A stretch of DNA of 64,000 bases from Lingula anatina (Eukaryota > Animalia > Brachiopoda), in NCBI GenBank assembly GCA_051362555.1, contig CM120649.1:2170001-2234000 (forward strand), given 5' to 3'. Below are positions 22,401 through 29,961 of the stretch, piece by piece (the first letter of the stretch is position 1; each line of letters begins with the position of its first letter). The position numbers were made by a program, and so were the translations under genes. The notes under the pieces were generated by a model. It did not search any database, was not told the DNA's origin, and worked only from the letters and a program-made list of their open reading frames with translations.

Positions 22401-25400
22401 TGCTATGATAGGAAAAATAATGTTGTAATATGTGGTTGATGTTGAAAACCAAAAATGAGATCATTTAACATCTTTGATGATCAAAAGTATAGCAATTGTG
22501 CAAAAATTAAGGCTTAAAATGTTTAGATTTGATATGTGAAATTACAGAATTATTGGTAAAATTGATATTAATAATATAATAAGGATAAGTGTGGCATGGT
22601 ATAGATGGTGATTTAAGCATAATCATGGATCAAAAAATGTCTTATTATTAGTTCTGAAAATATCTTTGGATCAATACAAATATAAGCTGGATAAAGGACT
22701 TTGAAACAAAAGCATCCACAGATTTTTCCCCTAGATATATTTCTCTGCTAATGTTTCTAAATGTCAGTCTTATTTTTGCTCTGGCAATTGTTTCTCTTTT
22801 GAAGTATAATAATAAGATCATAACTTTTTTTTTTCCTCCATAGATGCCAACTCATTTCAACAAACTTCCAAATGGATTGATGACGTGCGAACAGAAAGAG
22901 GGAGTGATGTTATTATCATGCTTGTGGGCAACAAAACAGATTTAGCAGACAAGAGGTGAAACCCATCTCTATATTTCTATAACATTCTATAAGGCATTTT
23001 ATGTTTGGGAAGGGCTGCTTTGATTCCAAAGTTTTCAAGGTCCTGTTTCACATCTAGTCTGATTCAAGTTTTTTATTTATTCATTTATTTATAATTTTTT
23101 TAAAATTATTATTATTATTATTATTTTTTTTTTTTTTTTTGGGGGGGGAGGGGATATCATACCCTACTTAGACTTAGCCAGCTACTAAGTTGCGCTTCAC
23201 AAAGAGTGAATTTTGCTGTGATTTATGATTTGATTGTCATGTATTACAAACAAAAGATTAAAAATGTTATTGTCTAAGTACTGTTCAAATGTGTCCGGGC
23301 AGAATGATTGCATTTATTGGGAATTTTGAGTTTTGAGGAGTTGTGTGACCCTTGATTTGAAGATGCTTTAGAAAAGAACTTGCTTTAAAAGACTTTCAAA
23401 AGAACTTGATTTGACATCCAAATACTAGTAATTGAACTTTTGCTTACATTTCTGTTTATTTTTAATATTTTTTCATTATATGTATAATCTGTAGTATTTG
23501 TTTGTTTTACCCAATTATTTTAGGCAAGTGTCAACAGAAGAAGGGGAAAGAAAAGCTAAAGAATTAAATGTTATGTTTATTGAAACCAGTGCTAAGGCTG
23601 GGTATAATGTCAAACAAGTAAGTAATGGTTTATATACTGATATAATGTCAAACAAGTAAGTGAAAGTTTATACACTAAAATAATGACAATGGAGGGAGTG
23701 ATTGAACTAAGAAAGTAAGATTTGGATCAGTTTTTTTTTTTTTTTTTTCCCTTAGTGGTAAAATGGTAGTCTCAGGTGATAAAATACAAAAATCATAACG
23801 TGTTTAATTAAACAGTATTGGTGATACAATTTCACTTTCACATTAATTTATTTGTTTGTTTTCTCAGTTATTTAGAAGAGTTGCAGCAGCGTTACCGGGC
23901 ATGGAACAAACAGAAAACAAGAAAGATCAAGACAGTATCCTTTCATGAATAGTATAAAGTGCACTTTCCTTTTTCATCGCCATGCTTAGTGAAGGGTATC
24001 GCCAAGAAGGGTATATCTCTATTATATTAACCTAATATACATAACTTGCTGAATGTGTAGGGTATTTTGGGCAAATTTTTTTTTTTTTTTTTTTTTTTTT
24101 TTTTTTTTTTTTTTTAATGTGATTGCGCTGTGTAGAATTAGTTCTTTGCACATTTGGTGGACATATGAATGAGAATGGCTGCTAAATCCACTGCATCAGT
24201 TCATTGGAAATGACCAATCTATCCACTACCTCAGGGCATTGGGAATGGCCACCCCTTATTTGTTTGCCCCAATTTGGTTTTTGGTGATCATCAGAACAAA
24301 TAACTGTATATATTGAATGCCTTGTATTCATTCATGTCTGTCTGTTTGCTTATAATTAGTTTTCTTAGCTTAACAGGCATGTCACAGTAAAAAGGAAAAA
24401 AAAATCTTAAAATTAAAATTCACAATGATATGCAACTGATAAAGAGAAAATAAGTCTTTAGAAAAAATTATTTCCAGATATTGCTTTATTGATAAACATG
24501 CAACATTTTCTTGTGAAAATCTTGTTTTGAAAGCGACGTACCACAGATGTATGCTGAGGAGGAGGGAATATCAGAACAGACAAATGTTCTTCAATTCTGA
24601 GGACAACAGCCTTTTCTTTTTTTTTTTTACCTGATCATATTGAAATGTTTTATCCTATTTTTGGTCATTGTTGTGCTTCTTCCCAAATTTAAGATTTCAT
24701 CATAATCACCGTTCCTGTTACGGTAAGTCACTTGTCAATATCATTAACATCTTTTACATCTCCCTTCAATTTTTTGTGCGATTTGCTTTTTTCCAGCTCT
24801 TCAAATATCATATTTGCTTTTGACGTGTGCTTCTGACCATTAACAATACACATAATAACGTCACAGAAGTAATTGGATTGTTATATTGCACTTATTGAAA
24901 TGTTAAAGCCTTCTTTGTTTATTTTAGGCAATCTTAATTCTATATTCTGTGTATTTTGGTCGCACAAGGAGACCCTGCAAATTTCCCATGGTATTAGTAA
25001 TTTTTACACTTGCTGTTTTTATGCCTTTTATTGTCAGTGTGGAATAATTTCTTGTTCCCACACTCTATTTTAGTGCAACAGTAATGAGATTTTTCCTACT
25101 ATTGGCAGACATCCTACTTTTGGGGAGCCAAAAATATCATTTTTGAGATAAGATGCAGAGGACCCCCTGGATGACCCCACAGCATATTTTTAGACTTTTT
25201 CTCTAAAACGGCAGTCTCATTCCTGATTAAAGTGATTGACATTTTGAAGAGAAATATCTCTTATTGTCTTTGTCTTTTTGGCAATGCCATTATTTTCTTC
25301 TGGAGTGAAATTAGTAAGGTTGTGTGGATGGGCAGAGTTTTTTTTTTTTTCTTCTTTTTCTTTTCTTCTCAAGGCACTCAATGGGCTTCCTAGTTACCAT

Positions 25401-29896: not shown

Positions 29897-29961
29897 CCCC
29901 AATTGAGCTAAAATCTCCAGAACCAACGGAACTGGACCAAGAAGGAGGCTGTTCCTGCTGA
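29897..29961 (+). CDS. RAB6: Rab6 alternative terminal exon 8c, tail TPIELKSPEPTELDQEGGCSC* (207-aa isoform)
   Basis: TTTCCTTAAC at 29875-29884 and CAG ending at 29896. In frame, ends EGGCSC-stop like vertebrate Rab6 tails. AATAAA at 30027. Confidence 0.9.

Follow-up and report, generated by a model that had tools for sequence, protein, structure and literature searches.

Vertebrate RAB6A and RAB6A' are produced by swapping a duplicated internal exon, and the gene that I will discuss here, the Rab6 gene of the brachiopod Lingula anatina, likewise makes its isoforms from a duplicated exon, although in Lingula it is the tail that is exchanged and not the interior. The gene lies complete on the + strand of a window of 64,000 nucleotides (nt), positions 2,170,001-2,234,000 of the forward strand of contig CM120649.1 (assembly GCA_051362555.1), and all coordinates given below are those of this window; its one U12-consensus donor is joined in RNA to three U12-type acceptors, each opening an exon (A, B and C, in order along the gene) that encodes a different tail. 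Similar layouts outside Rab6 are those of KRAS4A/4B and CDC42, in which one G domain likewise receives swappable hypervariable tails from duplicated exons, the KRAS 4A and 4B exons being termed mutually exclusive (PMC9882654). However, the KRAS and CDC42 tails differ in their membrane-targeting chemistry whereas the Lingula tails all end in CxC, so the likeness is one of layout only; and while Lingula has a U12-consensus donor and three tails, the available text of that human survey of C-terminal splicing, which covers nine other Ras-family genes with Rab6 not among them, leaves a U12 intron unmentioned for either gene (PMC9882654).

The three Lingula proteins were already known as RefSeq predictions: isoforms X1, X2 and X3 (XP_013408685.1, XP_013408686.1 and XP_013408687.1, all from one contig) have tails that equal A, B and C letter for letter, but these are automatic models with another first exon, silent on intron class, regulation and function. 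Two-tail versions were already annotated elsewhere, in Colias, Hylaeus and Asterias, where pairs of proteins likewise agree throughout the core and differ in their CxC tail, two tails as against the three of Lingula. In vertebrates, the counterpart of this intron appears among the minor introns listed for human and mouse RAB6A and RAB6B and for human RAB41 (PMC6717393), with a U12 donor at the same position and in the same phase as in Lingula to judge from read-through models, but each listed intron there has one acceptor where Lingula has three, and the vertebrate proteins fetched for this work carry only M-type tails, the type encoded by exon B. Alternative splicing of U12 introns in general has been described as almost absent, with alternative U12 3' sites seen as possible errors and their regulation doubted (PMC3584512). 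The cases of U12/U2 competition that have been described are interlocked introns in MAPK8/9 (JNK) and TMEM87 and nested introns in prospero and SRSF10 (PMC8329584, PMC1874599), SRSF10 also coupling the minor/major choice to a poly(A) site (PMC8329584, PMC1874599), together with CENATAC and MAPK12, in which one 3' site is common to U2 and U12 donors and for which it has been proposed that the U12 branch region serves as the pyrimidine tract (PMC8329584). Exons B and C of Lingula would be like CENATAC and MAPK12 in that two donors of different class act on one 3' site (taking the donor of exon A as U2-type, as argued below), whereas all of these cases offer a minor versus a major route and Lingula has one U12 donor facing three U12-type 3' ends kilobases apart, a layout absent among the cases described in the available text of PMC8329584. 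A Rab6 minor-intron tail switch was not found in the literature covered, a scope that took in neither subscription papers nor supplements on bioRxiv nor the large tables of PMC10639083 and PMC7367187, where these introns could be listed, and the supplements of PMC3291851 and PMC2831892 (insect and evolution papers on U12 introns) contain no Rab6 term. What is new here is the three-way choice, the stop-carrying cassette with common acceptors and the sample-dependent switch of the last exon.

The reading that I regard as probable is that the one U12-consensus donor is joined to the three U12-type acceptors, likely by the minor spliceosome, to yield three Rab6 proteins that have their GTPase core in common and carry three predicted-prenylated tails, which would likely differ in what they bind, and that two switches operate. 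The donor, GTATCCTTT (23935-23943, phase 1), closes exon 7 (23868-23934), the last of seven common exons that together hold 559 coding nt; it fits the U12 5' splice site consensus RTATCCTTT, just as the original prediction from the DNA had claimed, is used in reads and is the site of the only GTATCCTT on both strands of the window. That prediction also placed three CCTTAAC acceptors 12-13 nt from a CAG, and the sequence agrees: the + strand of the window has four CCTTAAC motifs, three of them within the next 6 kb of the donor (26480, 27675 and 29878, with TTCCTTAAC at the latter two), and the branch A stands 12, 13 and 13 nt from the last intron base for A, B and C, within the U12 optimum of 11-13 nt (PMC3584512). 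The branch motifs with their CAG acceptors occupy 26480-26497, 27675-27693 and 29878-29896, and the exons begin at 26498 (A), 27694 (B) and 29897 (C). Joined to the core in phase 1, they give proteins of 209 (A), 208 (B) and 207 (C) amino acids that end in CPC, CAC and CSC, and the tails that had been claimed reappear exactly in the translated models. As a control for chance, 500 first-order Markov sequences were generated with the dinucleotide make-up of 23935-30000: they held a mean of 0.414 branch+YAG sites per sequence and 5 of the 500 had at least three, the number in the real region, while sites followed by a prenylation-type end averaged 0.002 per sequence against three in the real region. 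The further claim that no long polypyrimidine tract lies between branch motif and CAG has to be qualified: at -23 to -4 only exon A is low (60% pyrimidine), and the 75% and 80% of B and C, partly raised by the branch motif that they include, are like the 75-85% of the gene's major acceptors.

Orthology points the same way, in that the Lingula donor and the listed minor intron of mouse Rab6a have an identical 12-nt 5' site context (PMC6717393), and 12 of the models fetched from other animals, which belong to fish, a bird and insects, continue their translation across the donor as Ser-Ile(-Leu) in the same phase; Lingula is also named among the species enriched in minor introns (PMC10639083). 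Judged by its motifs and orthology, the last Rab6 intron is an old minor intron. A weak branch-like GCTTAAC with a CACAG before 24388 (24369-24410) would lead to a short lysine-rich end without cysteine, and this candidate acceptor is probably a product of chance. Rfam gave no match within the window, no inverted repeat of docking type was found that would convincingly pair the donor region with the acceptors (poly-T/poly-A made up the majority of the longest 25 of 201 pairs), and a tblastn search of all CxC tails against the window piled its matches on A, B and C, with smaller piles, for example, near 43400, 18600 and 19800.

The RNA comes from nine runs with the same species label, of which four were used (X1, X4, X7 and X8, from three studies), each read in part (~6-26%) and mapped on 26420-30200 only; an exon 7 junction was recognized as a loose read end identical to the last 30 nt of the exon (23905-23934) and placed ahead of an acceptor. 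Among the junctions listed, exon 7 is joined to A by 36 reads (X1 23, X4 6, X7 7), to B by 154 (X1 72, X4 13, X7 33, X8 36) and to C by 18 (X4), and depth over exon C is nonzero in all four runs, low but present where that junction is unlisted. Since reads at A, B and C carry the end of exon 7, all three acceptors are used with its donor, and each of the junctions by which the triple choice was expected to be recognized (23934>26498, 23934>27694 and 23934>29897) has its reads. C is the commonest exon 7 junction listed in X4 (18 of 37), and exon A accounts for 16-24% of the listed junctions in three runs.

The part of the original prediction that fell is that all three exons are terminal and separately provided with a poly(A) site and an untranslated region (UTR), since 38 reads join A to B or C. 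These joints leave from the exon A donor, GTATGCTTT (26590-26598), and comprise 31 to B in four runs (X1 12, X4 1, X7 9, X8 9) and, among those listed, 7 to C (X4), the other three runs listing A>B only; the A>B joints start from 26589 in X1 and X4 and are listed from 26586 in X7 and X8 with 1-4 differing letters in the gap, and I take these letters for allelic variation at one and the same donor. All four runs have zero depth over 26674-27308 (reads were broken at a repeat, 26812-26850, and the bin ahead of that repeat is likewise empty), and the AATAAA at 26809-26814 is intronic in the reads seen. Because exon A is spliced on to B or C and 26674-27308 is empty, A is an internal cassette of 92 nt (26498-26589) and not a terminal exon, and no poly(A) end of its own was found for it; its stop (26566-26568) sits 21 nt ahead of the exon end. 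In KRAS, too, the 4A exon is spliced on to 4B, much as A is spliced on to B or C. The transcripts therefore comprise four mRNAs (7-B, 7-C, 7-A-B and 7-A-C), three proteins and two last exons, and the broader claim that one gene makes three Rab6 proteins with a common GTPase core and different CxC tails is supported by reads and sequence alike.

Exon B, the main last exon (27694 to approximately 29400, stop 27759-27761), and exon C, the distal one (29897-30200, its UTR continuing beyond; stop 29959-29961), both behave as alternative last exons, with direct junctions and an mRNA end, the 3' end of C lying beyond the mapped stretch. An AATAAA does follow each of the three tails in the DNA (26809, 28166 and 30027), as had been pointed out, but none of the three is the main mRNA end: exon B mRNA extends beyond 28166 to ~29400, fitting an AATAAA at 29358 and a 3' UTR of ~1.6 kb, and exon C mRNA extends beyond 30027 and past 30200. 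Between B and C the depth drops to 0 at 29468-29594, and no B>C joint is listed. The observed ratio of C to B depth is 0.085 in X1, 1.47 in X4, 0.061 in X7 and 0.042 in X8, a shift of 17- to 35-fold between samples, and X4 leans to C from both donors (18:13 from exon 7 and 7:1 from exon A); the choice of last exon is likely to be regulated. Two observations on these UTRs stand by themselves. The 27 nt just after the stops of B and C (27767-27793 and 29962-29988) are 70% identical, with a third copy at 27953, and are either a remnant of exon duplication or a common regulatory element; and over 27800-29400 the reads of one species label are often only 90-95% alike, with X7 and X8 sharing many private letters, which suggests distinct populations or cryptic species among the runs.

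In the mechanism that I propose, U11/U12 would pair the exon 7 donor with one of the three branch sites, and a first switch would pick the last exon, either B (the default and ancestral one) or C. This choice would likely be made at the 3' end, which fits the lean of both donors to C in X4 and the listing of A>B alone elsewhere: where the B acceptor and a poly(A) site near 29360 are used C would be cut off, and where they are bypassed C, ~0.5 kb further on, would be used, so that tail choice would be coupled to polyadenylation. The second switch would be inclusion or skipping of exon A, whose stop would override the B or C tail and turn it into 3' UTR. Exon A itself would be recognized by exon definition, through its U12 branch site on one side and its GTATGC donor on the other. 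It is likely the major spliceosome that reads this donor, and for it the U12 3' ends of B and C, rich in pyrimidines, would double as common acceptors; in the reads, each of these two acceptors is joined to two donors, those of exon 7 and exon A. GTATGCTTT has the U12 consensus except for a G at +5, a major-type letter, and matches GTATCCTTT in 8 of 9 letters. A G at +5 points to U1 recognition and is a change that converts a U12 into a U2 donor, and it is from this letter only that I infer the major class of the exon A donor. A stop codon is generally seen by nonsense-mediated decay (NMD) when it lies more than 50-55 nt ahead of the last junction, and the stop of exon A, 21 nt from that junction, would likely escape NMD.

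How far the switch extends beyond Lingula was judged from 321 fetched proteins, a biased sample (the best 120 of 2322, 3 of 3 and the best 120 of 707 matches, plus cluster members; the search with the Colias T tail alone gave the 3) in which proteins only are compared, branch sites being outside the comparison. The exon 7 core is held by 223 of them: 172 with an M-type tail, 31 with another CxC tail, 12 that read through and 8 with other ends. Pairs from one species that agree in the whole core and part into different tails at the same junction are found in Colias eurytheme (P0001/P0002), in Hylaeus anthracinus (P0149/P0280) and in the sea stars Asterias amurensis (P0172/P0248) and A. rubens (P0243/P0250); an oddity of Lingula alone was rejected on the strength of the insect and sea-star pairs. 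The alternative insect tail, T, was found in mayfly, termite, thrips, Hymenoptera, Diptera and Lepidoptera, is conserved along its length (mean pair score 43-48 among mayfly, termite, thrips, bees, flies and moths versus 1-7 to M tails) and follows M in two stitched models (P0122 and P0136) as C follows B. The third, cassette-type tail was seen in Lingula only, the other fetched species having two.

As to the origin of the tails, B scores 62-65 to those of chiton, coral, amphioxus, nemertean and Owenia and is, by this resemblance, the ancestral type; exon A resembles B (shuffle p 0.001) and scores best to M tails; and C has its best match in P0214 (score 28, p 0.0015), followed by insect T and Asterias tails (p 0.02-0.04), with B at p 0.24. 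The suggestion that the terminal exon was triplicated and then diverged is thus supported in its exon duplication, given the likeness of A to B and the 70% identity of B and C over 27 nt, but not as a one-off triplication, insects and sea stars having annotated versions with two tails. A separate origin of the second tail in Lingula, in insects and in sea stars, the last exon having been duplicated repeatedly rather than once in a bilaterian ancestor, has, in my estimation, a little less than an even chance: the Asterias alternative tail is closest to Asterias M (score 22 versus 18 to Lingula C), the non-M group has a support of only 0.42 in a tree of 32 tails, and the biased sample has M tails alone for molluscs, amphioxus, corals and vertebrates, yet the tails nearest to Lingula C are P0214 and, after it, those of insect T and Asterias rather than B of the same gene, and the order of T after M matches that of B and C. 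A bolder view, which I offer as speculation and think rather unlikely as a whole, is that of an ancient bilaterian minor-intron tail switch in which Lingula C, insect T and the sea-star second tail would descend from one ancestral exon, the tail chosen would affect binding to Ric1-Rgp1 or effectors, and with it Golgi traffic, differently from tissue to tissue, Lingula would have added a stop cassette that makes the major spliceosome reuse minor acceptors, and vertebrates would have substituted paralogues.

Rab proteins with a CxC end are geranylgeranylated by RabGGTase, and upstream of that end lies the motif known as CIM, with the pattern aliphatic-x-aliphatic. Both are present in all three Lingula tails, which are predicted to be geranylgeranylated in the cell and which have no extra cysteine and no polybasic run. 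Among the fetched proteins, [VI]xL and CxC are kept by 31 of 31 non-M tails, and by 172 of 172 M tails in a count that is circular, the motif having helped to define the class. In yeast, the part of the Rab6 tail that Rgp1 binds, residues 195-206, contains the CIM (Ile200/Ile202), and a Rab6 given the tail of Rab5 is mislocalised (PMC11618376), while Rab1A and Rab1B differ via their tails (PMC9939007). The Lingula tails would likely differ in binding to guanine nucleotide exchange factors (GEFs) or effectors and so tune where or how strongly Rab6 works, and a different function for each is plausible.

Among other explanations of the locus, a set of three alternative terminal exons, every one ending with an AATAAA of its own, would accord with the AATAAA that follows every tail in the DNA and might be defended on the ground that the RNA comes from four of nine listed runs, each in part, but the 38 reads from A to B or C and the zero depth over 26674-27308 in all four runs contradict it for these samples, and I hold it to be very improbable; three independent poly(A) ends were rejected on these same observations. 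Still less credible, to the point of being almost negligible, is the idea that tails A and C reflect noisy splicing, copies in decay or errors of assembly: U12 3' site choice has indeed been called error-prone (PMC3584512), but C takes 18 of 37 junctions in X4 and A its 16-24% in three runs, frames, CIM and CxC are intact, a similar switch occurs in other phyla, and the sequence differences that fall in tail codons, four among the 40 listed of 192, are all at third positions and either silent or stop-keeping. An assembly artefact was rejected, given RNA junctions and intact frames. It is also conceivable, though I consider it distinctly unlikely, that the intron from A to B or C is minor-spliced as well, with GTATGCTTT as a degenerate U12 donor and the whole 3' end in the hands of the minor spliceosome; the 8 of 9 letters common to the two donors and the perfect U12 branch motifs of the joined acceptors speak for this, as does the statement that U12 and U2 sites are generally incompatible (PMC3584512), whereas the minor spliceosome makes strict demands on the 5' site (PMC1874599), GT-AG U12 donors become U2 donors through point changes (PMC3584512), and the B and C acceptors, unlike A, are pyrimidine-rich enough for U2AF.

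A more serious contender, one that I judge unlikely but deserving of real weight, accepts the splicing as seen and holds that the tails are equivalent, what is selected being the 3' UTR (through stability, localisation or translation) or the mRNA level, with the tails conserved just far enough to allow prenylation. It draws on the CIM and CxC kept in all tails, on the different UTRs that B and C bring (~1.6 kb for B) and on the ability of a foreign tail to support growth in yeast (PMC11618376), but choice of UTR alone explains poorly why exon A alters the tail yet leaves the B or C end in place, or why insect T tails are conserved along their whole length. Alternative tails also have fewer basic residues in four of six M/alternative sets (Asterias, Colias, Hylaeus and Anopheles) and in Lingula C, although net charge is equal for Lingula A and B and the sixth compared pair shows no difference. 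For the reading that I prefer, three tails from one minor-type donor with likely different binding, several points have to be counted against it. The minor class of the intron is assigned by motifs and orthology; the evidence for the tails is at the level of DNA and RNA, the proteins being predicted; all tails keep CxC and CIM and may be equivalent; and the foreign Rab5 tail on yeast Rab6 slowed GEF exchange only slightly in vitro and left growth unimpaired (PMC11618376). The exon 7>C junction is listed in one of four runs and exon 7>A is unlisted for X8, with 34 loose-end entries outside those listed, and the silence of the tail differences rests on the 40 listed of 192. The high C:B ratio comes from a single run, X4, without tissue identity, so individual, population or library effects are possible, X7 and X8 diverge more from the reference than the other runs, and the poly(A) ends are inferred from read depth only.

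The remainder of the gene is modelled with the coding part of exon 1, with its conserved N-terminus and a phase-1 GTAAG donor, at 4445-4511 (placed by sequence only), and with exons 2 (10119-10177), 3 (15597-15650), 4 (22084-22189), 5 (22844-22955) and 6 (23524-23617) of the spliced core, which by inspection equals RefSeq Lingula Rab6 from exon 2 on and so belongs to the Rab6 subfamily. An alternative first coding exon of 27 codons at 6129-6210, with a phase-1 GTAAG donor at 6211, is likewise read from the DNA and encodes the N-terminus of the RefSeq Lingula isoforms; it replaces the Rab6 N-terminus as far as the first half of the P-loop. Isoforms of Ostrea and Mytilus (P0185, P0221 and P0317) have alternative N-termini at the same point as Lingula, and both ends of Rab6 may be swapped in lophotrochozoans. 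The 3' end of exon 4 is repeated in tandem together with its donor (22207-22269, 58 of 63 nt identical to 22138-22200 and in frame), and this second donor would, if used, add 23 residues; a short repeat of the exon 6 end with a GTAAG donor lies at 23638-23662, shortly 3' of the true donor. Around the gene, the final exons of an upstream gene, which by eye resembles an importin alpha, lie at 193-1260, ~3 kb ahead of Rab6 exon 1, the exons of another + strand gene start at ~33940 (33941-35600), and degenerate tandem-repeat arrays are seen by eye at 38040-38800 and 40300-41800.

One U12 donor with three complete U12-type 3' ends, all leading to intact proteins, contrasts with the view that U12 introns are almost never spliced alternatively and that such choices at their 3' sites may be errors (PMC3584512). 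The locus is a ready-made substrate on which to study branch-site choice by the U11/U12 di-snRNP (small nuclear ribonucleoprotein) and the competition between slow minor splicing and polyadenylation. With one G domain and exchanged tails, it likewise amounts to a tail-swap experiment made by nature, which bears on the long-argued question of how far the hypervariable tail sets Rab targeting; in yeast, it is this same region of the Rab6 tail to which Rgp1 binds (PMC11618376). Since two-tail proteins recur in insects and echinoderms, the bee, mosquito, moth and sea-star versions provide tractable animals in which to test it.

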